A DNA stretch of 37,926 nt. It comes from Candidatus Brennerbacteria bacterium (GTDB lineage: Bacteria > Patescibacteriota > Minisyncoccia > UBA6257 > JACPKE01). Below are positions 3,591 through 37,677 of this stretch, piece by piece (the stretch's first letter is position 1; every line of letters starts with the position of its first letter). Made by a program: the position numbers and the translations under genes. Location: assembly GCA_016187205.1 (NCBI GenBank), contig JACPKE010000004.1:1-37926 (forward strand), given 5' to 3'. A model generated the notes under the pieces. It was not told the origin of the DNA. It searched no databases and worked only from the letters and a program-made list of their open reading frames with translations.

Positions 3591-4988
3591 TTATCGCAAC
3601 GTTTTCGTTAATTTCTTAAAAACTTTACCTCTTTCTTTGTAGTCTGTAAACATATCAAAGCTGGCTGATCCGGGGGAAAATAATATGATTAATTTAGTTT
3701 TTAGCTTATAGTTTTTTCCGCCAGAGGCGGATCCGCCTTCGGCGGAAGTTTTTAACTTATTAGCTTTTTTATATGTTAAATTAACAGCGCCTTTTAAATC
3801 TTTCGTTAAAATAATAGGCACACCGGTTTTTGAAATCGCTTTTTTTATTTTATTTTTATTTTCTCCGAATAATATAATCTCAAGCGTGTTGGAATTTTTT
3901 AAAGTGTTTGCCAATGGTTTGAAATCAAGCTTCTTGTCTTTGCCGCCGGCAATTAAAATTTTTGGTTCTTTAAAAGCTTTTATCGCGGCCGCGGTTGTCT
4001 GGGGATTGGTAGATGCGGAATCGTTATAGAAAAACATTCTAACATTCTTGAGAATGTCAGAATGTTTTTTAACAGGGATTTTAATTGATTTAATCAATTC
4101 TAAGCGATGCTCAAGGCCTTTAAAACCCTCAATTGTTTTTTTTATAATATTTTCTTTTATTTTTAAAAAGCGGCAGACTTCCGCGGCCATTAAAGCGTTT
4201 TTGATGTTATGTATCCCGTTAATTTTTAAATTTACGAAGTGGGACTTCGTAAATTTAACAGGGATTTTTTTGGCTCGGCTTTTTGCAATAATTGGTTTTA
4301 AGCCCGGCTCATTATTAAAATAAAATATTTTATCGCCGATTATTTGATTTTTTACAATTCCGGCTTTGGCATTTATATATTCTTTAAAGTTTTTATGCGA
4401 GTCTAGATGGTCGGGAAAAATATTTAAAATCACGGCGATGTTAGGGGAATATTTCAATTCTTGGAGCTGGAAGCTGGACATTTCCAGCACAACAATTGAT
4501 TTTTTTGATAAGCGCGGAAGTATTTCAATTGCTGGTTTGCCGATGTTGCCTGCCAAATAAACATCGCGCTTTGCGGCTTTTAAAATTTTATAAATCAAAG
4601 TTGAGGTTGTGCTTTTGCCTTTGGTGCCGGTTATGCCTATTGTCAGGCATTTGATTTTTTTAGTTTGTTCCAAAAATAATTCTGTGGAACTTGTTATTTT
4701 TGTTCCTGATTTCGCCGCTTCCTGTATTTCTTTTGTCATATACGGAATTCCTGGAGAACGGAAAATAACGTCAAAAATTTCCAAATTTTTAAGGTATTTT
4801 TCTCCGGATATGATTTTAACGCGTTTATTTTTTCCGCCTTTGGTGAAAAATAAAGATTTTACAGGTTTGCGGTCGCAAATCGCAATTTCATAATTTTTAT
4901 AATCGGGAGATTTTAAAAGATAGCGTAAAAGCGCTTGTCCTTCGCGGGCAAAACCAAGAATGGCGATTTTTTTATGAGTTTTTATCAA
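3591..4988 (-). CDS. murD: UDP-N-acetylmuramoyl-L-alanine--D-glutamate ligase
   Basis: Mur ligase P-loop GITGTKGKSTTSTL, an N-terminal Rossmann-like segment (IAILGFAREGQ), GIHNIKNALMAA and a LEHR motif. Length is typical of MurD. Contains two in-frame hairpin insertions (see the repeat features). Confidence 0.9.
   Translation of the reverse strand: MIKTHKKIAILGFAREGQALLRYLLKSPDYKNYEIAICDRKPVKSLFFTKGGKNKRVKIISGEKYLKNLEIFDVIFRSPGIPYMTKEIQEAAKSGTKITSSTELFLEQTKKIKCLTIGITGTKGKSTTSTLIYKILKAAKRDVYLAGNIGKPAIEILPRLSKKSIVVLEMSSFQLQELKYSPNIAVILNIFPDHLDSHKNFKEYINAKAGIVKNQIIGDKIFYFNNEPGLKPIIAKSRAKKIPVKFTKSHFVNLKINGIHNIKNALMAAEVCRFLKIKENIIKKTIEGFKGLEHRLELIKSIKIPVKKHSDILKNVRMFFYNDSASTNPQTTAAAIKAFKEPKILIAGGKDKKLDFKPLANTLKNSNTLEIILFGENKNKIKKAISKTGVPIILTKDLKGAVNLTYKKANKLKTSAEGGSASGGKNYKLKTKLIILFSPGSASFDMFTDYKERGKVFKKLTKTLR
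3717..3746 (-). repeat. 30-bp GC-rich double-hairpin element, in-frame in murD (encodes SAEGGSASGG)
   Basis: The coding strand reads TCCGCCGAAGGCGGATCCGCCTCTGGCGGA. This is 29/30 identical to the copy in gap (33062-33091). Confidence 0.85.
4226..4258 (-). repeat. 33-bp hairpin element (core GAAGTGGGACTTC), in-frame in murD (encodes ..FTKSHFV..)
   Basis: TTAAATTTACGAAGT-GGG-ACTTCGTAAATTTAA forms a 15-bp perfect stem with a 3-nt loop. The same 13-nt core occurs twice in pheT (7933-7972). Confidence 0.8.
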
Positions 4989-5217: not shown

Positions 5218-5799
5218 TTATTCTGTAAATCTAAAAGTAGAAAAAATAGCTTGCCTTAATTTACTACCTTTAATATTTCTTTCTATTATTACGTTATCAT
5301 CTGCATCGCTGGCAATTTCTAGTAAATATATAAATTCATTTTTTTGAATCTCTCGATATGTATAACAACCACCTTCATCGCATTGTTTAAATATTCTACT
5401 CGGATAATCTAAAAACTCATCTTTTCTTTCAATATTATCTACTGGTGAATATGTTGATATTGCAATAAAAAAGAGATCATACCCACCATCTAGCTCAAAA
5501 TAAATTAGACCATCAGTTGTTAATGCGGGTTGATGCAATTCTTTATCGTTACGATTAGTTCGTCCAATTATTTTAACAATTGACGGATATTTAACTTCAA
5601 ATTTATACTTTTGATTTTTATAGATTTGCCAATTTTTATAGATTTGCCAATCAGCGGTTGTAGTGGTTATTGGTTTTACGATTTGAGTTTCTTTAACTTC
5701 TTGAATTGATTTTTGGATAATATATCGGATTCCAATAGCTCCACCTAAAACACCCATGATAACTATCAAAATTATTAAACGGTATATTTTTTGATTCAT
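5218..5799 (-). CDS. Hypothetical N-terminally anchored protein
   Basis: 193-aa ORF with one TM helix (LIILIVIMGVLGGAIGI) and a W..Y.N..Y.F...YP motif. That motif is shared with the C-terminal domains of the 2620..3483 and 34050..35330 products. Contains a perfect 18-bp tandem duplication (WQIYKN x2). Confidence 0.55.
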   Translation of the reverse strand: MNQKIYRLIILIVIMGVLGGAIGIRYIIQKSIQEVKETQIVKPITTTTADWQIYKNWQIYKNQKYKFEVKYPSIVKIIGRTNRNDKELHQPALTTDGLIYFELDGGYDLFFIAISTYSPVDNIERKDEFLDYPSRIFKQCDEGGCYTYREIQKNEFIYLLEIASDADDNVIIERNIKGSKLRQAIFSTFRFTE

Positions 5800-5868: not shown

Positions 5869-6175
5869 TTGCGGATCGGGGAATCGAACCCCACCCTAAA
5901 GGTTATGCTTGCTACTACGATTTTCATCGCCTCCAAAATTAGGAGTTTGTAGTCTGGACTATACCTTAATCCTGTTTTAACGGGATTCTCGCCATCTAGT
6001 CTCTACGCCTTCTTCATCTCTTCATAATTCAGAGAAACCGAAGCTTGGTTCGGTATTACCTCTCCGTTGTTGGAAGGGGCTCCACCGAGTTTGACGAGTG
6101 TCCATCACTTATTACTAAGTGACGAGCCCATATTAAGTTTTGAGCCTTTCGAGCTCACCAGAGCTCTTATCCGCC
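5869..6175 (-). tRNA. Intron-containing tRNA, predicted anticodon CAT (initiator-like features); exons 6175..6143 and 5907..5869
   Basis: 5' exon is GGCGGATAAGAGCTCTGGTGAGCTCGAAAGGCT and 3' exon is CATAACCTTTAGGGTGGGGTTCGATTCCCCGATCCGCAA. Joined, they give a 72-nt class I cloverleaf with anticodon arm AAAGG-CTCATAA-CCTTT and T-arm TGGGG-TTCGATT-CCCCG. The 5' exon ends in U and the intron ends in G, as group I splicing rules require. Confidence 0.75.
5908..6142 (-). ncRNA. Group I intron (IC3-like), 235 nt, in the anticodon loop between positions 33 and 34
   Basis: Contains core blocks that I recall from the Azoarcus pre-tRNA-Ile intron: GTCAAACTCGGTG, CCAAGCTTCGG, and GATGAAG..GCGTAGAGACTAGATGGC followed by TTAAGG. 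No ORF lies inside. Confidence 0.75.
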
Positions 6176-6264: not shown

Positions 6265-7287
6265 ATGGATATTTTGAAAAATTTGGAAGAAATAAAAAAA
6301 TTGGCTCATCAGGATATTGAGGCGATAAAAACTACGGAAGAATTTGAAAAAGTCCGTGTTAAATATTTAGGCCGGAAAAGCGAGTTAAGCCTGGCCTTGC
6401 GTTCTATTAAAGATTTGCCGATTGAAGAACGGCGTGAAGTCGGTTTTAAAGCTCAGAAGTTGAAACGGGCATTAGAGGAATTATTTTTAAGAAAATTAAG
6501 CGAGTTAAATGTCAAAGGTCAAATGTCAATGGTTAGTTTAGATATTACAAAACCTGGCAAAAAAATTGAATTGGGCCATTTGCATCCGCTTACAAAAATA
6601 TCCCAGGAAATTAAAAATATTTTCATCTCGCTTAATTTTTCCGTTGTTGATGGTCCGCAGGTTGAAATCGAACGTTACAATTTTGACGCATTGAATATTC
6701 CGGCTAACCATTCGGCCAGGGATATGTGGGACACCTTCTGGCTGCAAAGCAGCCAGAAGGTGTCCAGCAGCCAGCTGTCAGCAGCCAGCAGCCGGTTGTT
6801 ATTGCGCACCCACACCAGTCCGGTGCAAATTCGTTATATGGAATCGCATCAGCCGCCTTTTCAGATTATCGCTCCCGGGACAGTATATCGTTATGAAGCA
6901 ACCGATGCCACCCATAGTTTCCAGTTTCAGCAACTGGAAGGTTTAATGGTCGGGAAAAATATTTCTTTCGCTAATTTTAAATATGTTATCAGCGTTTTTT
7001 TGGAAAAATTTTTCAAGCGAAAAATTGAATTTATTCTGCGGCCGAATTATTATCCTTTTGTCGAGCCCGGCGTTGATGTTTATATAAAATGGAAAAATCG
7101 CTGGCTGGAAGTGGCTGGTGCCGGCATGGTTCATCCGAAAGTTTTTGAGGCGGCGCATTATAATCCGCGGGAATGGCAGGGCTTTGCTTTTGGGTTCGGG
7201 TTGGATCGTTTAGCGATGATTAAATATAATATTCCCGACGTCAGGCTTTTTTATTCCGGCGATTTGAGGTTTATTAAACAGTTTTAA
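6265..7287 (+). CDS. pheS: Phenylalanine--tRNA ligase alpha subunit
   Basis: Class II aaRS motifs: HPLT, NFDALNIPANHSARDMWDTFW, LLRTHTSPVQIRYM, APGTVYR, FQQLEG, GAGMVHP and FGFGLDRLAM. Carries a roughly 14-aa insert between DTFW and LLRTHTS. Confidence 0.95.
   Translation: MDILKNLEEIKKLAHQDIEAIKTTEEFEKVRVKYLGRKSELSLALRSIKDLPIEERREVGFKAQKLKRALEELFLRKLSELNVKGQMSMVSLDITKPGKKIELGHLHPLTKISQEIKNIFISLNFSVVDGPQVEIERYNFDALNIPANHSARDMWDTFWLQSSQKVSSSQLSAASSRLLLRTHTSPVQIRYMESHQPPFQIIAPGTVYRYEATDATHSFQFQQLEGLMVGKNISFANFKYVISVFLEKFFKRKIEFILRPNYYPFVEPGVDVYIKWKNRWLEVAGAGMVHPKVFEAAHYNPREWQGFAFGFGLDRLAMIKYNIPDVRLFYSGDLRFIKQF
6729..6765 (+). repeat. 17-bp-stem perfect hairpin inside pheS; the left arm is conserved coding sequence
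   Basis: GGACACCTTCTGGCTGC-AAA-GCAGCCAGAAGGTGTCC, followed by further GCAGCCAG copies at 6767-6774 and 6781-6788. Confidence 0.85.
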
Positions 7288-7302: not shown

Positions 7303-7707
7303 ATGTCCGAAATTTTAGAAAAAATAGAAAACGGGGAAAAAGAAAAAAATATTCAGACTCAGGAAAAAGAAGTACTGGATAATTTTCATCGCGAAATTCG
7401 GGAATTAAAAGAAAAAGAAGAAAAAGGAGAATTGAAAACAGTGCATTTAAAGGATATTAATCCGGATGAACTGGTGTTTGAAGATATGGCTAAGTGGGAG
7501 CAGGTAAAAAATAACTTAATCATTTTAGATGATTTGGAAGATTTCGCCGCCGAGCTTAGACAAGAAGGTAAAAAGCCGGAAGATAAAGAAGAGATTCCAG
7601 AATCCCGTCTTCTTTTTGCGGCCTTTTTACTTAATAAAGGGGCTGGTTTCAGGCAAATGAAAGCTCAAGAACAAAAGAAAATTTATAAAATGAAAGAAGC
7701 GGCTTAA
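7303..7707 (+). CDS. Hypothetical highly charged (E/K-rich) protein located between pheS and pheT
   Basis: 134-aa ORF tightly packed between pheS (ends 7287) and pheT (starts 7716). No recognised domain. Confidence 0.5.
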   Translation: MSEILEKIENGEKEKNIQTQEKEVLDNFHREIRELKEKEEKGELKTVHLKDINPDELVFEDMAKWEQVKNNLIILDDLEDFAAELRQEGKKPEDKEEIPESRLLFAAFLLNKGAGFRQMKAQEQKKIYKMKEAA

Positions 7708-7715
7708 AAATTAAT

Positions 7716-9794
7716 ATGAAATTTTCTTACACTTTAATAAAAAAAATAGTTCCAGGGCTTAAAAATAAAAACCAGCTTATTGAAGCGTTAAATGAACATT
7801 CTTTTGAAGTTGTTGACGCGGAAGGCGATTCCTTTGATGTTTCGGTTCCGCCCAACCGGTTTTCCGATGCGGCTTCGCATTGGGGAATAGCGCGGGAAAT
7901 TTCCGCGATTTTAAATTTGAAATTAAATATTAAGGAAGTGGGACTTCCTAATATTAGGAAGTCCCACTTCCTAAGAGTTGAGATTAAAGAAAAAAAGCTT
8001 TGCCGGCGTTATATCGCCGAATATTTTACCAACGTTAAAATTAAGCCGTCTCCTGTCTGGATGCAGAAAATTTTAAAAGACTGCGGTTTGCGGCCGATTA
8101 ATAATGTTGTTGATATTATGAATTACGTTATGCTGGAAACCGGACAGCCGTTACACGCTTTCGATTTTGATAAAATCGAAAGCGTTAAAATCAAAAATCA
8201 AAAATCAAAAATCAAAAATATTATAATTCGCACGGCAAAACACAGCGAGGAAATTAAAACATTAGATAATCAGCAATTTATTCTTAATGCCGATGTTCTG
8301 GTTATAGCCGATTCCAAATTTCCGTTAGCGATTGCCGGCGTAAAAGGCGGTAAAAAAGCCGAGGTGGATGCCAAAACTAAAAATATCATTGTTGAAGCCG
8401 CGAATTTTGACGGTCCGAATATTTACAGAACATCAAAATTTTTAAATTTAAAAACAGACGCTTCTTTAAGATTTTCTCATAGTTTAAGTCCGTTCTTAGC
8501 CGGTTTGGGATTGGCAAGGGCGGGAGAACTGCTTATAAAAGAAGGCGCTCGGCCGCAGGCTTATTACGATTCCCATCCGGACGGACATTTGAAAAAACTT
8601 ATTGAATTTAATATTGAAAAATTCAATCATTTAATCGGCGTTAATTTAAGTATTGGGCAGGCGGAGGATTATTTAAAGCGGCTCGGTTTTTTAACGGCTA
8701 AAAACTATAACCTAAAAACTAAAAGTTCATTCTTAGTTGAAGTTCCGCAATTTCGGGCGGATATAGAAAATTCTGAAGATTTGGCAGAGGAAATCAGCAG
8801 GCTTTACGGATATAATAAAATTAAATCTTTGCCTCCCGAGGTGCCGCTTAAAATAGCCAAAACTGATGATATTATTGTTTTTAAAGACCAATTGCGGAAA
8901 ATTTTAACCGGATTTGGCGCTAGTGAAGTTTATAATTATTCTTTTGTTTCAGCGACTGACTCAAGGCTTGGTTTTGATGGTGGTAAACCGGTTGAGCTTT
9001 TAAATCCGATTAGCCCGGCGTTCCAATTTTTGCGTCCGAATTTAGCCATTGGTTTGTTAAAAAATATCAAGGAAAATTTCCGTTTTTTTGAAGAGGCAAG
9101 GATTTTTGAAATAGGGAAAGTTTTTAACAAACGCGATGTAAAACTGCGAATGCGTCCGAATCAACGAATAAATTCAAATGATACTAATATAGAAGGCTGG
9201 CTTGCCAGCCGAAGCATTAGCGAAGGCTGGCGGCTGGGAATCGCGATTGGTTCTAAAAACAAGGAAATTATTTTTGAACTTAAAGGTTTAGTTTCCGAGT
9301 TGCTGAAAAAATCTGGACTGGTTGAATTTTTTATGCGTGATGGCGGCAAAAAATCAGATTTTTTACAAGCTGACGGGGCGTTAATGATTGAATCTGATAA
9401 TTCAATTATCGGATATCTTGGCAAGGCCGGTGATTTTACCAGCGTTTGCGAGATTGATTTGGAGAAATTGCTAAATCTTGTGGAAGGCGAATTGGAATTC
9501 CGGCCATTACCAAAGTATCCGTCTGTAATGCGAGATATTTCAATCCTTGTCAGCCGCGACATAAGAATCGGGGAAATTTTGGAAGCTATGAATTCGCCGG
9601 AAATTCAATATGTTGACGATGTTGATTTGATTGATGAATATTTTAGCGATAAGCTTGGCGGCAACCGCCAGAGCCTGACTTTTCGCGTTGTTTTTCGTTC
9701 GGAAGAAAAAACCCTTGAGGACAGGGAAGTTGATAAAGAATTGGTTAAAATAGTCAATATTTTGAAAGAAAAATTTATGGCTGAAATACGTTGA
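7716..9794 (+). CDS. pheT: Phenylalanine--tRNA ligase beta subunit (short form lacking the N-terminal tRNA-binding domain)
   Basis: B3/4-type region (RYIAEYF..VKIKPSPVWMQKIL..CGLRPINNVVDIMNYVMLETGQPLHAFD), B5-like region, and a C-terminal FDX-ACB-like end (YPSVMRDISILV...QSLTFRVVFRS..KTL). Position directly after pheS supports the call. Confidence 0.9.
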   Translation: MKFSYTLIKKIVPGLKNKNQLIEALNEHSFEVVDAEGDSFDVSVPPNRFSDAASHWGIAREISAILNLKLNIKEVGLPNIRKSHFLRVEIKEKKLCRRYIAEYFTNVKIKPSPVWMQKILKDCGLRPINNVVDIMNYVMLETGQPLHAFDFDKIESVKIKNQKSKIKNIIIRTAKHSEEIKTLDNQQFILNADVLVIADSKFPLAIAGVKGGKKAEVDAKTKNIIVEAANFDGPNIYRTSKFLNLKTDASLRFSHSLSPFLAGLGLARAGELLIKEGARPQAYYDSHPDGHLKKLIEFNIEKFNHLIGVNLSIGQAEDYLKRLGFLTAKNYNLKTKSSFLVEVPQFRADIENSEDLAEEISRLYGYNKIKSLPPEVPLKIAKTDDIIVFKDQLRKILTGFGASEVYNYSFVSATDSRLGFDGGKPVELLNPISPAFQFLRPNLAIGLLKNIKENFRFFEEARIFEIGKVFNKRDVKLRMRPNQRINSNDTNIEGWLASRSISEGWRLGIAIGSKNKEIIFELKGLVSELLKKSGLVEFFMRDGGKKSDFLQADGALMIESDNSIIGYLGKAGDFTSVCEIDLEKLLNLVEGELEFRPLPKYPSVMRDISILVSRDIRIGEILEAMNSPEIQYVDDVDLIDEYFSDKLGGNRQSLTFRVVFRSEEKTLEDREVDKELVKIVNILKEKFMAEIR
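7933..7972 (+). repeat. 40-bp perfect palindrome in pheT made of two inverted GGAAGT-GGG/CCC-ACTTCC hairpins
   Basis: AGGAAGTGGGACTTCCTAAT|ATTAGGAAGTCCCACTTCCT. It encodes ..EVGLPNIRKSHFL.. and shares its 13-nt core with murD 4226-4258. Confidence 0.85.
8187..8220 (+). repeat. 7-bp microsatellite (AAAAATC, about 4.9 units) inside the pheT coding sequence
   Basis: AAAATC AAAAATC AAAAATC AAAAATC AAAAATA, encoding KIKNQKSKIKNI. Confidence 0.9.
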
Positions 9795-13812: not shown

Positions 13813-14238
13813 ATGGCTAAACTAATCAAAACAACTTTAAAATTGCAGATTGAAGCCGGGAAAGCCAATCCGGCGCCGCCGATTGGACCGGCTCTTGGCC
13901 AGCACGGCGTTAATATTCAGGATTTTTGCAAGCAGTTTAACGACGCCACCAAGGATATGACCGGGGATGTTGTTCCGGCGGAAATCACTATTTATCAGGA
14001 CAGGACTTTTGATTTTAAACTGAAAACTCCTCCGGCTTCGGCTTTGCTTAAAAAAGCCGCTGGCGTTGAAAAAGGATCCAAGGATATTTTAAAAAGCAAA
14101 GTCGGCAAGGTTTCCAGAGAAGATATCAGGAAAATAGCCGAACGCAAAATGATTGATTTGAATACCGATAATGTTGAAGAGGCGGAAAAAATAATTGCCG
14201 GCACCGCAAAATCAATGGGGATTGAGGTTATGGATTAA
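13813..14238 (+). CDS. rplK: 50S ribosomal protein L11
   Basis: [42 protein letters not shown] prefer the ATG at 13813 over the upstream TTG at 13795 given in the ORF track, because L11 proteins normally begin MAK. Confidence 0.93.
14125..14237 (+). repeat. 113-bp segment of the rplK 3' end, duplicated at 18851..18963 (1 mismatch)
   Basis: Direct comparison of the two stretches, ATCAGGAAAATAGCCGAACGCAAAATGATTGATTTG...GGGATTGAGGTTATGGATTA. The only difference is ATAATTGCC versus ATAATCGCC. Confidence 0.95.
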
Positions 14239-14374
14239 ATTTTAAGTTTATTATAATTTAAGAATTTGCGTTGTTTTTAAATAAAAAATTTCCATACCCG
14301 TTGCTTAATGATTTTTGACCAAAATAATGATAGAATAACGGTATGATGAATATTTTTTAAACAATCTATAAATT

Positions 14375-18733: not shown

Positions 18734-18970
18734 ATGGTTAAAAAATTATTCACAATCGAAGGAATGCATTGCGGCGCTTGCGCCGCCGGCATTGAGAAAG
18801 GTTCCGGCGACGTTTTAAAAAAAACAGCTGGTAAAATCAGCAGGGAAGACATCAGGAAAATAGCCGAACGCAAAATGATTGATTTGAATACCGATAATGT
18901 TGAAGAGGCGGAAAAAATAATCGCCGGCACCGCAAAATCAATGGGGATTGAGGTTATGGATTATTTTTAA
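18734..18970 (+). CDS. Chimeric ORF: HMA-like N-terminal fragment fused to a second copy of the L11 C-terminal domain
   Basis: [16 protein letters not shown] carries the GMxCxxC heavy-metal-associated signature. It is followed by [60 protein letters not shown], which corresponds to L11 residues from about 84 to the end. The last 113 bp are near-identical to rplK. It may be a pseudogene. Confidence 0.45.
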
Positions 18971-28293: not shown

Positions 28294-28313
28294 TTTTAGT
28301 ATAGTATAATATC

Positions 28314-28367
28314 TAGTATCTAGTATCTAGTATCTAGTATCTAGTATCTAGTATCTAGTATCTAGTA
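28314..28367. repeat. 7-bp microsatellite (TAGTATC x7 plus a partial unit) in a divergent intergenic region
   Basis: Perfect TAGTATC units from 28314 to 28362, then TAGTA. Lies between the sugar transferase start (28293, -) and the DsbA-like start (28388, +). Confidence 0.95.
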
Positions 28368-30248: not shown

Positions 30249-31186
30249 TGTACGATGTAATTATTGTTGGCGGCGGGCCGGCTGGAGTTGCCGCCGGAAT
30301 CTACACCGCCAGGAAAAAATTAAAAACGCTTTTAATGACAGAGGAATTCGGCGGCCAGTCAATCGTGTCCGATGACATTCAGAATTGGATTGGCGATGCC
30401 CACATTTCCGGTTTTGATTTGGCGAAAAAACTTGAGGCGCATTTGCGGACTTATTCCGATGATGTTGATATTAAAATTCCGGAAAAAGCCGTTGAGGTGA
30501 AAAGAATCGGCGATGGTTTGACGGCTATGGGATTTGAAGTGAAAACCGATAAAAATAATGTTTATCAGGCAAGAGCGGTGATTTTAGCGAGCGGAGCGCG
30601 CCGCAGAAAATTAAATATCCCGGGAGAGGACCGCTTGAACGGAAAAGGAGTTGTTTATTGTTCAACTTGCGACGCCCCGCTTTTTAAAGATAAAGCGGTG
30701 GCTGTTGTCGGCGGAGGCAATGCCGGCTTGGAAGCGGTAGTTGATCTTTTTCCTTACGCGTCAAAAATTTATCTTTTGGAATTCGGTGAAACTCTCAAAG
30801 GCGACCAGGTTTCCCAGGAAGAGGTGAAAAAGAACCAGAAAGTTGAAATTCTTTTTTTTGCCGAAACGCGCGAGATATTGGGGGATAAGTTTGTTGCCGG
30901 ATTGAAATACAGCCACCGCAAAACAGGCGAGGAAAAAATTTTGGATGTAAAAGGAGTTTTTGTTGAAATCGGTTCGGTTCCCAATTCCGAAATGGTTAAA
31001 GGTTTGGTGGCGCTGGATAAATATGGCCAGGTGATTATTGATTCAAAACACAGCACCACTTCCGAACCGGGAATTTTCGCGGCTGGAGACGTTACCGACG
31101 ATCCTTACAAGCAGAATAATATTTCCGTAGGCGACGCGGTTAAGGCGGCTTTGGCGGCTTATAATTATCTTTTGAAGAATAAGTGA
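30248..31186 (+). CDS. trxB: Thioredoxin-disulfide reductase
   Basis: YDVIIVGGGPAGVAAGIY (FAD-binding), the CSTCDAPLF redox CxxC, VVGGGNAGLEAV (NADPH-binding) and FAAGDVTD. Confidence 0.9.
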   Translation: MYDVIIVGGGPAGVAAGIYTARKKLKTLLMTEEFGGQSIVSDDIQNWIGDAHISGFDLAKKLEAHLRTYSDDVDIKIPEKAVEVKRIGDGLTAMGFEVKTDKNNVYQARAVILASGARRRKLNIPGEDRLNGKGVVYCSTCDAPLFKDKAVAVVGGGNAGLEAVVDLFPYASKIYLLEFGETLKGDQVSQEEVKKNQKVEILFFAETREILGDKFVAGLKYSHRKTGEEKILDVKGVFVEIGSVPNSEMVKGLVALDKYGQVIIDSKHSTTSEPGIFAAGDVTDDPYKQNNISVGDAVKAALAAYNYLLKNK

Positions 31187-31719
31187 TAGTCGTACTTTCT
31201 GATATTCGGAGTATTTATAATGTCGGTTCAATTTTCCGAACCGCGGACGCGGTTGGCGCTGAAAAAATTTATCTTTGCGGAATAACTCCGGCGCCGATTG
31301 ACCGTTTCGGAAAAATTAGGCCGCAATTTGCCAAAGTTTCTCTTGGCGCGGAAAAATTAGTTAAATGGGCAAAGGTAAAAGCGACAGGCGTAATTATTGA
31401 AAAATTAAAAAAAGACGGGTATAAAATATTTGCTATTGAGCAGTCAAAAACATCAATTCTTTATTATAAAACCAATCTATCGCGGTCCGACCGCGATAGA
31501 TTGGTTTTGATTTTAGGGGGCGAAGTTAAAGGGTTGCCGCCGGCGATTTTAAAAAAAGCCGACAAGGTTTTGGAAATTCCGATGAGAGGGGCAATGGTTC
31601 GGCAGGCTCACCATCCGCGAAGTTTAGGCCGCGGAAAAGAATCGTTGAATGTATCAGTTGCTTTCGGCGTTATCGCTTATTTTTTAAGATTCAAAAAATG
31701 CAACGTTATATTCAATTAA
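31183..31719 (+). CDS. SpoU/TrmH-family RNA 2'-O-methyltransferase
   Basis: NVGSIFRTADAVG, LVLILGGEVKGL and IPM.G....SLNVSVAFGVIAY (SPOUT motifs 1-3). GTG start overlapping the trxB stop. Two apparent in-frame inserts. Confidence 0.85.
   Translation: MIVVLSDIRSIYNVGSIFRTADAVGAEKIYLCGITPAPIDRFGKIRPQFAKVSLGAEKLVKWAKVKATGVIIEKLKKDGYKIFAIEQSKTSILYYKTNLSRSDRDRLVLILGGEVKGLPPAILKKADKVLEIPMRGAMVRQAHHPRSLGRGKESLNVSVAFGVIAYFLRFKKCNVIFN
31468..31508 (+). repeat. 41-bp near-perfect palindrome inside the SpoU methyltransferase gene
   Basis: AAAACCAATCTATCGCGG-TCCGA-CCGCGATAGATTGGTTTT (18-bp stems), encoding KTNLSRSDRDRLVL. Confidence 0.85.
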
Positions 31720-32992: not shown

Positions 32993-34036
32993 ATGAAAAA
33001 TGTAAAAATAGCAATAAACGGGTTTGGCAGGATAGGCCGGCTTTTTTTCCGCCAGGCTTTTTCCGCCCAAGGCGGATCCGCCTCTGGCGGAGGTTTAGAT
33101 ATCGTTGCCGTTAATGATCTGGGCGATATTGAAAATTTGGCTTATTTGTTAAAATACGACACTGTTTACGGCCGGTTCGCCAAAGAGATAAAAGTAAAAA
33201 GCGATAAGTTAATTGTTGATAATAAAGAAGTTAAATTTATTCAGGAAAAAGATCCGGCGCGGCTGCCCTGGAAAGATTTGGGAATAGATATTGCGATTGA
33301 ATCAACGGGATTTTTTGAATCCTATGATAAAGCTAAAGCGCATATCGGCGCCGGAGCCAAACGGGTTGTTATTACCGCTCCGGCAAAAGATCCGGACGGC
33401 GTTGAAGGGAAAACAATCTTGATTGGAGTGAATGAAGCAGAGGCAAAAGGCATTGTTTTGACTTCAAACGGTTCCTGTACCACTAATGCCGCGTCTCCGG
33501 TAATCCAGATAATGTCCGAAAATCCGGGTATTCAGAAAGCGATTTTAAACACGGTTCATGGCTATACCGCTACGCAGAATTTGGTTGACGGGCCGACCAA
33601 GGGCAAGGATTTCCGGCGCGGCCGGGCCGCGGCCCAAAATATTTCGCCTTCAACAACCGGCGCGGCTATCGCGGTTACCCGCGTCATTAAAGAATTGGAA
33701 GGAAAATTTGACGGCGTGGCTTTGCGGGTGCCGGTTGCGACGGGTTCGGTCGCCGATATCACTTTTCTGGCAAAACGGAAAACTACCGAAGCTGAAATTA
33801 ACGATATTTTTAAACAAGCTGCCGCGTCTCCGAGATGGAAAGGGATTTTAGCCGTCACCGAAGACCAGATTGTTTCTTCGGATATCATCGGCGAACCATA
33901 CGGCGCGATTGTTGATTTGAAATTTACCAAAGTTGTTGACGGCGATCTGGTGAAAATTTTGTCATGGTATGATAATGAAGCCGGATATGTTTCAACACTT
34001 ATCAAACATGTTTTAAATGCCGCCGCATTAGTTTAA
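32993..34036 (+). CDS. gap: Type I glyceraldehyde-3-phosphate dehydrogenase
   Basis: KIAINGFGRIGR, the SNGSCTTNAASP active-site Cys, and WYDNEAGY at the C-terminus. Confidence 0.95.
   Translation: MKNVKIAINGFGRIGRLFFRQAFSAQGGSASGGGLDIVAVNDLGDIENLAYLLKYDTVYGRFAKEIKVKSDKLIVDNKEVKFIQEKDPARLPWKDLGIDIAIESTGFFESYDKAKAHIGAGAKRVVITAPAKDPDGVEGKTILIGVNEAEAKGIVLTSNGSCTTNAASPVIQIMSENPGIQKAILNTVHGYTATQNLVDGPTKGKDFRRGRAAAQNISPSTTGAAIAVTRVIKELEGKFDGVALRVPVATGSVADITFLAKRKTTEAEINDIFKQAAASPRWKGILAVTEDQIVSSDIIGEPYGAIVDLKFTKVVDGDLVKILSWYDNEAGYVSTLIKHVLNAAALV
33062..33091 (+). repeat. 30-bp GC-rich double-hairpin element, in-frame in gap (encodes SAQGGSASGG)
   Basis: TCCGCCCAAGGCGGATCCGCCTCTGGCGGA. It inserts between the GRIGR helix and the IVAVND strand, where E. 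coli GapA as I recall it is about 7 residues shorter. Confidence 0.85.
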
Positions 34037-35338: not shown

Positions 35339-35800
35339 ATGATTATTTACATCGCTTCAGACCATCGGGGTTTTCAATTAAAAGAAGCGTTAAAGAATTT
35401 TTTAAAAGCGAACGGGTATACGGTAGAAGATTTAGGAAATAGCCGGCTGGATAAAGAAGACGATTATCCGGATTTCGCCGCCAAAGTCGCCAAGATAATC
35501 AGTGAAGATTATTACAATGAGCGGCGCGGCATTGTTTTATGCGGTTCCGGTGTCGGCGTTGATATCGTGGTTAATAAATTCCCGCGCGTTCGTTCGGTTT
35601 TGGCGATTTCGCCGGATCAGGCGTCCGTCAGCAGGAATGACGATGACACCAATGTTTTGTCTTTAGCCGCTGATTTCATGGAAGAAGAAAAAGTTAAAAA
35701 AATCGTTTCTGTCTGGCTGCAAACGCCTTTTGCAGGAGAAGCCAAGAATAAACGGCGGCTGGATAAAATCGCGGAGATAGAAAAGACAATTAACATTTAA
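35339..35800 (+). CDS. rpiB: Ribose-5-phosphate isomerase B
   Basis: IYIASDHRGFQLKE, GIVLCGSGVGVDIVVNKF.RVR and RNDDDTNVL (RpiB/LacAB family). Confidence 0.9.
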   Translation: MIIYIASDHRGFQLKEALKNFLKANGYTVEDLGNSRLDKEDDYPDFAAKVAKIISEDYYNERRGIVLCGSGVGVDIVVNKFPRVRSVLAISPDQASVSRNDDDTNVLSLAADFMEEEKVKKIVSVWLQTPFAGEAKNKRRLDKIAEIEKTINI

Positions 35801-37071: not shown

Positions 37072-37677
37072 TTGGAAAAAGGGGGTATATCGGCAACGGT
37101 GAGAGGTATGACCATCACTCTCGCTATGGACGATAGACAATTGTCCACCATCCAGGAGGTCGAACGGTTTACCGCGGGAACGGCGGCTGCCCTGTTTCGC
37201 GGCAGTTCGCGCAAGGAAAAGTACGCCTGGGCGGAAGCAACCCTCATCCGCTTCCGCTACGCGCGGCTTCGCAAGAAGGAAAGGTCGTCGGTCAGGGAGT
37301 TTATCCGCAAAATCACCGGCTATTCCGACATCCAGACTAAGCGGCTCATCGGACAGTACCTCGACTCGGGCAAAGTGCTCCTCCAGTCTTGTTTCAACGA
37401 ATATCTGAATTTCCACCGTCCCTGCGGGTTTGCCACCGTGATTGTGGATGCTAAAGGCAAAGAGAAGAAAATATATAACGTGTATGAAACCCCGTATGAG
37501 AGGTTCGGATCGCTTTCCGGAGCGGAACAGTATCTCAAGCCGGGTGTCTCGTTCGCCGAGCTTGATTGCGTTGCCCAGAGGATGAGCGATACCGAATATG
37601 CTATGATGAAGCAAAAGGCCGAATTATTGTCCGCTATAGGCGGAGCCGCTTCAGGCGGAAAAAACCTCTCTCGTTAG
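37072..37677 (+). pseudogene. Transposase remnant (HTH N-terminus joined directly to the C-terminal tail; DDE core missing)
   Basis: The N-terminal part (..KEKYAWAEATLIRFRYARLRKKERSSVREFIRKITGYSDIQTKRLIGQY) is followed directly by the tail NEYLNFHRPCGFATVIVDAKGKEKKIYNVYETPYERF..AEQYLKPGVSFAELD. In full-length rve-type transposases that tail follows the catalytic domain. There is no DDE region in between. Confidence 0.6.
37630..37659 (+). repeat. Diverged copy of the 30-bp double-hairpin element at the 3' end of the transposase remnant (SAIGGAASGG-KN)
   Basis: TCCGCTATAGGCGGAGCCGCTTCAGGCGGA. Both hairpins are retained through T-G wobbles, and it is followed by AAAAAC as in murD. Confidence 0.65.

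Follow-up and report, generated by a model that had tools for sequence, protein, structure and literature searches.

The stretch of DNA analyzed here (the window) comprises positions 1 to 37,926 of contig JACPKE010000004.1 of a Candidatus Brennerbacteria bacterium (Patescibacteriota; GenBank assembly GCA_016187205.1). Our subject is a long perfect hairpin within the coding sequence of its pheS gene, together with the tandem heptanucleotide array that follows it (Table 1). The top solved relative of the open reading frame (ORF) at 6265..7287 is the alpha subunit of T. thermophilus phenylalanyl-tRNA synthetase (PheRS; E = 1.4e-88). Positions 6729-6795 read GGACACCTTCTGGCTGC AAA GCAGCCAGAAGGTGTCC AGCAGCCAGCTGTCAGCAGCCAGCAGCCGG, and the hairpin spans 37 nt, as two 17-nt arms and a 3-nt spacer. 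The left arm is made up of the last G of Trp155, the codons Asp156-Thr157-Phe158-Trp159-Leu160, and the first C of the next codon; it encodes (W)DTFWL, whose residues D156, T157, F158 and W159 are invariant in the alignment of relatives. The initial annotation, made from the sequence alone, had described a perfect 17-bp hairpin joining these conserved native codons to their exact inverse, and a motif, GCAGCCAG, that recurs downstream. Each of these observations was borne out, with complementarity at 17/17 positions and plus-strand recurrences of the motif at 6767 and 6781 that form part of a CCAGCAG period-7 array.

Table 1. Features of the pheS and pheT genes in the window, followed by hairpin stems at the same pheS site in related genomes (L002 to L085).
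Feature	Position	Strand	Remarks
pheS, phenylalanine--tRNA ligase alpha subunit, 340 aa, host gene	6265..7287	+	PF01409 and PF02912; E = 1.4e-88 to 1b70_A
Second in-frame pheS array, AAAGGTC x3.9, encodes NVKGQMS	6507..6533	+	linker after N-terminal coiled coil
Hairpin left arm, 17 nt, native coding sequence	6729..6745	+	perfect complement of right arm
PheS loop codons, L160-R177	6742..6795	+	between DTFW helix and LLLRTHTS strand; predicted coil, low confidence
AAA spacer, 3 nt, symmetry centre	6746..6748	+	same position in L002, L003, L008, L029, L047, L070 and L085
Hairpin right arm, 17 nt, exact reverse complement of left arm	6749..6765	+	in-frame translation (Q)SSQKVS
Heptamer array of pheS loop, CCAGCAG x4.3, 82% matches	6764..6793	+	Tandem Repeats Finder, period 7; homologue CCAGCAGTCAGCTGCCAGCC in L085 loop
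pheT hairpin, perfect 14 bp, ACGCTTTCGATTTT gat AAAATCGAAAGCGT	8155..8185	+	left arm = conserved H-A-F-D-F codons
pheT array, AAAATCA x4.7, perfect, 33 nt	8187..8219	+	directly after pheT hairpin
Stem in L048			TACATTTTGGTTG; 13 bp
Stem in L085			ACCTTTTGGTTGC gga GTAACCAAAAGGT; 13 bp, one G-T
Stems in L008 and L029			12 bp
Stem in L002			12 bp, one mismatch
Stem in L070			11 bp
Stem in L032			10 bp
Stem in L003			10 bp, one G-T
Stem in eight genomes			C[AG]TTTTGGC nnn GCCAAAA[TC]G; 9 bp

The hairpin is real and lies far beyond chance. The 17-mer occurs exactly twice in the window, once per strand, against an expectation of 0.04 matches, and two matches were reached in 0/100 shuffles. The GCAGCCAG motif, with a chance expectation of 0.32 matches in the window, is found on the plus strand at 6749, 6767 and 6781 and on the minus strand at 6738, within the left arm, and at 35713, its only site outside the region. 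The hairpin region has a folding energy of -65.5 kcal/mol (z = -6.2). An independent assembly (L001; Logan SRR12113424) carries an identical palindrome, with a single mismatch over 2873 nt that falls outside it, so the palindrome is not an artefact of a single assembly. Chimeric reads can yield palindromes, and that general fact is all that speaks for an artefact of assembly or amplification; this palindrome keeps the reading frame of an essential gene, and related hairpins are present in assemblies from many separate studies. We consider the probability of chance or artefact to be negligible.

The right arm is translated within the loop L160-R177 of PheS, whose peptide is LQSSQKVSSSQLSAASSR. 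E. coli-type PheS chains are about 13-14 residues shorter at this loop, whereas the T. thermophilus loop, LTGEGFRLEGPLGEEVEGR, is one residue longer than that of the window. Only by comparison with E. coli, then, does the segment count as an insert, and the initial description of a roughly 14-residue insert stands for that comparison but not for Thermus. Across 85 related genomes, the distance from DTFW to (K/R)LLLRTHTS ranges from 4 to 34 residues, and all 85 loops are in frame and free of stop codons. As such loops must be read through rather than bypassed, we rejected a translational bypass element. Palindrome-free loops of equal length also exist, Thermus included. In an AlphaFold model built with 102 sequences, the loop is coil, with a mean predicted local distance difference test (pLDDT) score of 55 for residues 161-170 and 65 for residues 171-180, and values below 50 at residues 168-172. 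The encoded peptide is thus predicted to be a disordered loop, and the S/Q-rich sequence is best read as a passenger.

Intermediates that had been proposed as a check were sought in related pheS genes, and a graded series was found. By PheS similarity, the organism falls within the Patescibacteria, close to Wolfebacteria and Paceibacterota. The DNA sample comprised the three closest relatives (L002-L004, 72-75% amino acid identity), 80 species-representative genomes (L005-L084), and L085; the window and L002, L003 and L004 form the closest clade, with 81-88% core identity. Perfect stems of at least 9 bp that include the F-W codons occur in 16 of the 85 Paceibacteria genomes, compared with 0 of 1700 shuffled tails. 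A hairpin at the same site is common to the window, L002, L003, L004, L085 and about 20 other species, and it recurs in one layout, in which the left arm is formed by the F-W-L codons and the 3-nt spacer follows directly after the Leu codon or the TGG. Stem lengths among relatives form a series of 0, 5, 7, 9, 10-13 and 17 bp (Table 1), with 9 bp in L004. Spacers at this site are a minimal 3 nt and show no favoured sequence. About 70-80% of the sampled relatives lack the hairpin and have short loops. Among relatives with a short LKP loop, the W-L-K-P codons are naturally self-complementary, for example as GGCTTAAGCC in L066 and as TTGGC tgaa GCCAA in L013.

These distributions bear on the original proposal that the insert of about 14 residues arose de novo in this lineage, through one recent inverted duplication by snap-back. 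Such an event would account for the perfect 17/17 arms, the minimal spacer and an array unit identical to the start of the right arm. It is largely refuted by hairpins with the same centre in L002, L003, L004 and L085, the last of these with a homologous cassette, and it also fits poorly with the loops of equal length that have no palindrome. We regard a single event of this kind as very unlikely. What survives of the proposal is local copying, as the right arm appears templated on local codons.

The evidence for that relationship lies in synonymous sites. The right arm of the window mirrors the gene's own synonymous codons GAC ACC TTC TGG CTG, and where relatives use TTT, TTG, TTA or other Thr codons, the right arm is altered correspondingly: TTC with GAA versus TTT with AAA, and CTG with CAG versus TTG with CAA versus TTA with TAA. 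Among the 10 genomes whose hairpins share the same register, double-sided changes were seen at the first position of the Leu codon (C-G in three, T-A in seven), the third position of the Phe codon (C-G in three, T-A in seven), the third position of the Leu codon (G-C or A-T), and the third position of the Thr codon (three pair types). Pairing of each genome's left arm with its own right arm reached 111/130 in these 10 genomes, while permuting the right arms gave a mean of 96.5 and a maximum of 110, with 0/20000 permutations reaching the observed value, although the genomes in this test are phylogenetically non-independent. L070 and L020, with 85% core identity and the same loop family, differ by three double changes. 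Because the arms covary with synonymous codon choice, the right arm must be either templated on, or co-evolving with, the local codons. Non-Watson-Crick pairs between the arms were equally divided between G-U (3) and A-C (3), too few pairs for a test of selection at the RNA level.

Within the closest clade, the window, L002, L003 and L004 all carry the hairpin, but each has a different, unrelated sequence 3' of it, indicating that the hairpin is older than the adjacent cassette. The first 12-13 nt of the right arm are common to relatives despite their differing cassettes, which places the cassette boundary 3' of the hairpin. The cassette of the window is homologous to the pheS-loop sequence of L085 (CCAGCAGTCAGCTGCCAGCC versus CCAGCAGCCAGCTGTCAGCA), a 54% GC genome whose PheS core is 70% identical to that of the window. 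The window is nearer to L085 than to L002-L004 only within 6688-6778, and the synonymous sites directly flanking 6729-6795 side with L002-L004, not L085; on these grounds we rejected a long recombination tract from a GC-rich donor. The two homologues differ by GT in the window versus AGCGA in L085. In the window this places GTCC opposite GGAC, adding four pairs and lengthening the stem from 13 to 17 bp. L085 is not the ancestor, yet the difference would be the sort of multi-base change that a template switch makes.

A second alternative is that all of the insert, right arm included, arrived as an in-frame cassette by mobility or horizontal exchange, either as a recombination patch or as an element like the Rickettsia palindromic elements (RPEs), and that the complementarity to DTFW came with it or from the way it inserts. 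Unrelated loops with sharp boundaries do replace one another between flanks of about 90% DNA identity (PheS core 92-96%), as seen in the pairs L021/L032, L030/L047 and L061/L046, while loop families are shared between PheS proteins only 66-71% identical. L012 carries a long-hairpin element of about 68 nt in frame in both the pheS DTFW loop (1960-2040) and pheT (3751-3818), with 92.6% identity between the copies, and an element of the same type lies at the pheT site of L079 (3754-3809). Paceibacteria therefore have RPE-like in-frame mobile palindromes, for which the DTFW loop is one landing site. Heptamer arrays recur at different sites, and the composition of the window loop (58-62% GC; GC content at third codon positions of 0.83 versus 0.43 for the whole of pheS) recalls its homologue in GC-rich L085.

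The hairpin itself behaves otherwise. Its right arm fits the gene's own synonymous codons, and the right arms of L085, L002 and L003 differ along with theirs. The shared 12-13 nt set the cassette boundary beyond the hairpin, and the flanks outside 6729-6795 resemble L002-L004 rather than L085. The 38-kb window has no further locus with either arm, and across 353 kb of related loci neither was found except in the DTFW loop, so the copies at unrelated loci that would mark a mobile element did not appear. No direct repeat flanks the insert as a target-site duplication. The window hairpin is unlike the L012-type mobile palindromes, as one of its arms is native; in this respect the earlier separation of the hairpin from dispersed element families holds. 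We consider it unlikely that the hairpin came with a mobile cassette. The GC-rich cassette part, however, may have come from outside instead of arising locally, and with a homologue in the distant, GC-rich L085, the initial view that the insert is not foreign can be kept for the right arm but not claimed for the cassette, whose arrays also recur elsewhere. When metagenomes were scanned for the cassette core, CCAGCAGYCAGCTGYCAGC, over 120 contigs matched, most of them from unrelated organisms of 50-70% GC and none in a pheS context; this pattern is too low in complexity for the scan to say anything about mobility.

The array that follows the hairpin belongs to a wider class. We surveyed the window and 84 loci (353 kb) for tandem arrays of at least three copies and found that period 7 predominates, with 80 arrays compared to 14, 8 and 8 for periods 6, 8 and 9. 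Omitting the duplicate assembly L001 leaves 78 period-7 arrays, 69 in long ORFs and 9 elsewhere. Their hot spots are the PheS N-terminal linker, the DTFW loop, a third site in PheS and two sites in PheT. Perfect coding arrays measure 26-34 nt, with a mode of 33 nt, and contain no stop in any of the three frames; variant units interrupt any stop that the consensus unit would form. In the DTFW loop, hairpin and array are associated (17/33 versus 1/51, Fisher p = 6e-8), and in the window the array unit GCAGCCA is identical to the first 7 nt of the right arm (7/7). A general derivation of every DTFW-loop array from the local right arm was rejected as weakly supported, with exact matches only at the two loci of the window and in L005.

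Arrays also recur at different sites. The second pheS array of the window (6507-6533, AAATGTCAAAGGTCAAATGTCAA) contains strings of 20-23 nt identical to the DTFW loops of L002 and L057, so one array can occupy differing pheS sites in different genomes; PheS residues 86-90, in this N-terminal linker region, have a pLDDT below 50. AAAATCA arrays lie in the DTFW loops of L024, L037 and L058 and in pheT of the window, and GCAAATG, GTCGTCA and GCAAAGC arrays each lie at two different sites. Other arrays of the window were noted in passing. A CTAAAAA-type heptamer array of 24 nt is present at 8700-8723 (pheT) and at 3693-3716 (a MurD-like ORF), with 96% identity between the copies; it is in frame in both genes, encodes KNY[NK]LKTK, and, within the Mur ligase ORF, directly adjoins the GC-rich double hairpin described below. 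The longest array of the window, a perfect TATCTAG x8.3, is intergenic (28310-28367), a fitting place for a unit that contains a stop codon.

The same build was found at an unrelated motif in pheT, where the left arm of a perfect 14-bp hairpin is formed by conserved codons and an array follows directly (Table 1). The native D-F-D-K-I codons form a 6-bp palindrome, GATTTT gat AAAATC, once more a natural seed, which in the window is extended to 14 bp, and the native TGATTTT, read in reverse complement, gives the AAAATCA unit of the array. In most relatives this position holds only 3-4 residues, while L073 has a 9-bp version, GCTTTCGAT...ATCGAAAGC, together with an AAAGTTA array. The window as a whole contains six perfect hairpins of at least 14 bp, whereas 30 shuffles produced none; five of them are within ORFs, with spacers of 0-3 nt. 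A spacer of 0-1 nt is a symmetry of the DNA and leaves no foldable RNA loop. Because pheT shares the build of the pheS hairpin and other ORFs hold palindromes with short spacers, these features point to a general DNA-level process rather than an RNA signal specific to pheS.

This bears on a further alternative, that the hairpin is a selected cis-element in the pheS mRNA or DNA, such as a translational or transcriptional pause site, a signal for mRNA stability or processing, or an entry site for cassette exchange, with selection keeping the arms paired. Its fixed position in many species, the double-sided changes at four pairs, the strong folding, and its survival beside four different downstream cassettes in the closest clade would all be expected of such an element. 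Its patchy distribution among the sampled relatives would not, nor would spacers that are always minimal and arbitrary in sequence, the lack of a G-U over A-C bias (very few data), the 0-1-nt-spacer palindromes in other ORFs, or the repetition of the build in pheT. An Rfam search at gathering and E-value thresholds returned no family for the hairpin, only a sub-threshold, spurious microRNA match (23 bits versus a gathering score of 100), and a terminator and promoter scan did not place the pheS hairpin among terminator-like sites. We think a selected element improbable.

We favour, with moderate confidence, the explanation that the feature is a DNA-level quasi-palindrome with no function of its own, on the 5' margin of a hypervariable PheS surface loop that tolerates insertions, and that the hairpin is most likely kept up by DNA-copying errors rather than by function. 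Perfect stems can be both generated and preserved by template switching, and one such event can introduce compensatory changes of several bases (Monttinen & Loytynoja 2022, PMC8794818). The process would start from the natural self-complementarity of TGG-CTN...CCA codons of the W-L-K-P type, which is seen in the sequences themselves. During replication, the nascent strand would occasionally snap back and briefly copy itself, so that the arms stay complementary; the 3' arm can follow such changes, since the loop it encodes is disordered and unconstrained. The same switching may at times lengthen the stem, which would have reached 17 bp in this lineage. Reiterated copying or slippage of the right arm probably seeded the array, with selection acting as a filter that passes arrays which are in frame and stop-free. 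In the neighbouring cassette region, heptamer arrays and small palindromes would be gained, lost and exchanged rapidly within permissive loops of pheS and pheT.

Several observations weigh against this explanation. The arm covariation fits both templated correction and selection on structure and cannot separate them, and a hairpin that is evolutionarily steadier than the adjacent cassettes could reflect selection. The resemblance of array units to the local right arm is only weakly general across genomes (a mean of 5.2 versus 4.7 of 7 positions, p = 0.008), and the same arrays at different sites and in different genomes suggest copying from elsewhere. Simple slippage does not account fully for the arrays, because stepwise expansion by 7 nt would frameshift an essential gene; the origin of perfect arrays of about 33 nt in such genes, with no frameshifted intermediates on the way, is a mechanistic puzzle. 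As the nearest relatives in the databases are only 72-75% identical, the extension from 13 to 17 bp is deduced from a homologue that is not ancestral, and the template-switch and cassette-turnover steps are drawn from pattern and established knowledge rather than from an event reconstructed on a tree.

A broader possibility, which we raise as speculative and rather doubtful, is that Paceibacteria systematically write and swap short in-frame peptide cassettes in the surface loops of essential proteins, with conserved coding-region hairpins, such as that at the DTFW codons, serving as entry or stalling sites. The cassettes might be written by snap-back synthesis primed at hairpins, after which a 7-nt template is copied reiteratively. 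Alternatively, preformed small palindromes and heptamer arrays of about 33 nt might be copied between loci or genomes without a transposase.

If the template-switch explanation is right, pheS offers a natural case in which template switching creates, maintains and lengthens a perfect hairpin inside an essential coding gene, with the conserved codons as a fixed template and the disordered loop as a writable copy. Compensatory covariation in a coding region then need not mean a functional RNA structure. The swapping of in-frame heptamer arrays and small palindromes in the loops of housekeeping enzymes of Patescibacteria, or Candidate Phyla Radiation (CPR) bacteria, also affects gene calling, alignment and marker-protein phylogeny.

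The window holds further palindromes. A 40-nt perfect palindrome in pheT (7933-7972) holds the hairpin motif GAAGTCCCACTTC, which is also present in frame at 4226-4258 within the MurD-like ORF (3591..4988, minus strand); both genes encode K-S-H-F there. The pheT region is no longer than in relatives and so was overwritten rather than inserted. In the ORF of a SpoU methylase (31183..31719), a perfect palindrome of 20+20 nt with a 1-nt spacer (31468-31508) has a right arm that enters the conserved LVLILGGE motif. A GC-rich double hairpin, TCCGCC-n4-GGCGGA-TCCGCC-n3-GGCGGA, is found at 33062-33091 (GAPDH), 3717-3746 (the MurD-like ORF) and 37630-37659; it is in frame and encodes SA[EQR]GGSA[SL]GG, a peptide also present in pheT of L058, and it is an RPE-like dispersed family. 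An intergenic perfect palindrome of 30 nt without a spacer lies at 2539-2568.

Other features of the window include a 187-nt direct repeat of 87% identity, with copies 4.7 kb apart at 14056-14242 and 18782-18968. A group I intron match on the minus strand (5931-6152; 59 bits, above the Rfam gathering score) lies between the ORF at 5218..5799 and pheS, and ARAGORN called no tRNA at that match. Between pheS and pheT is a small ORF (7303..7707, 134 residues) with no Pfam match; L002 and L085 have ORFs of comparable length there (129 and 109 residues).

Set against known systems, the hairpin and its array are a variant of described phenomena (template-switch hairpins, heptamer repeats and RPE-like elements) and not a new functional system. 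A literature search for CPR or Patescibacteria with in-frame, tandem or palindromic repeats or codon-templated hairpins found no prior description. Translational bypass elements, known from T4 gene 60 and as mitochondrial 'byps', offer one resemblance, as these too are GC-rich inserts within coding sequences of AT-rich genomes, and the insert likewise opens with a hairpin-forming segment. Bypassed gaps need be neither in frame nor stop-free. Another likeness is to RPEs and intragenic repeats resembling miniature inverted-repeat transposable elements (PMC10969869), which are in-frame inserts at permissive sites of housekeeping proteins; dispersed RPE-like families in the window and its relatives include SAxGGSASGG, the KSHF hairpin and the 68-nt element of L012. 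Unlike the pheS hairpin, RPEs are about 100-150 bp long, contain both arms within the element, and have many dispersed copies (PMC10969869), whereas here the left arm consists of native DTFW-L codons and no second copy exists in the window or the related loci.

Among long repeats, those with heptanucleotide units are the most frequent in many prokaryotes and have been ascribed to polymerase slippage (PMC4679880); the TAACTGA repeats of Beggiatoaceae and a Mrazek-type survey of prokaryote repeats are among the work which that article cites. The CCAGCAG x4.3 array is a heptanucleotide tandem repeat, with at least three head-to-tail copies, and the only other assembly of the organism, L001, is identical in this region. 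The arrays described here resemble the heptanucleotide simple sequence repeats of prokaryotes in having tandem 7-nt units of many different sequences, in a few to about 10 copies. Cyanobacterial short tandemly repeated repetitive (STRR) sequences are a further family of long heptanucleotide repeats. The known families are mostly intergenic, whereas 69 of our 78 arrays lie in ORFs, in frame, in surface loops of essential aminoacyl-tRNA synthetase subunits.

The hairpin itself behaves like quasi-palindrome and template-switch mutations, as in the Ripley model and the quasi-palindrome hotspots of E. coli. The pheS right arm is likewise the reverse complement of adjacent sequence, at 17/17 positions and across a 3-nt spacer, and the arms stay paired through two-sided changes among relatives. 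Unlike the known cases, the pheS stem lies inside a coding gene, with one arm pinned by purifying selection and the other in a free loop, and throughout a bacterial class it reappears at these codons, coupled to heptamer arrays.

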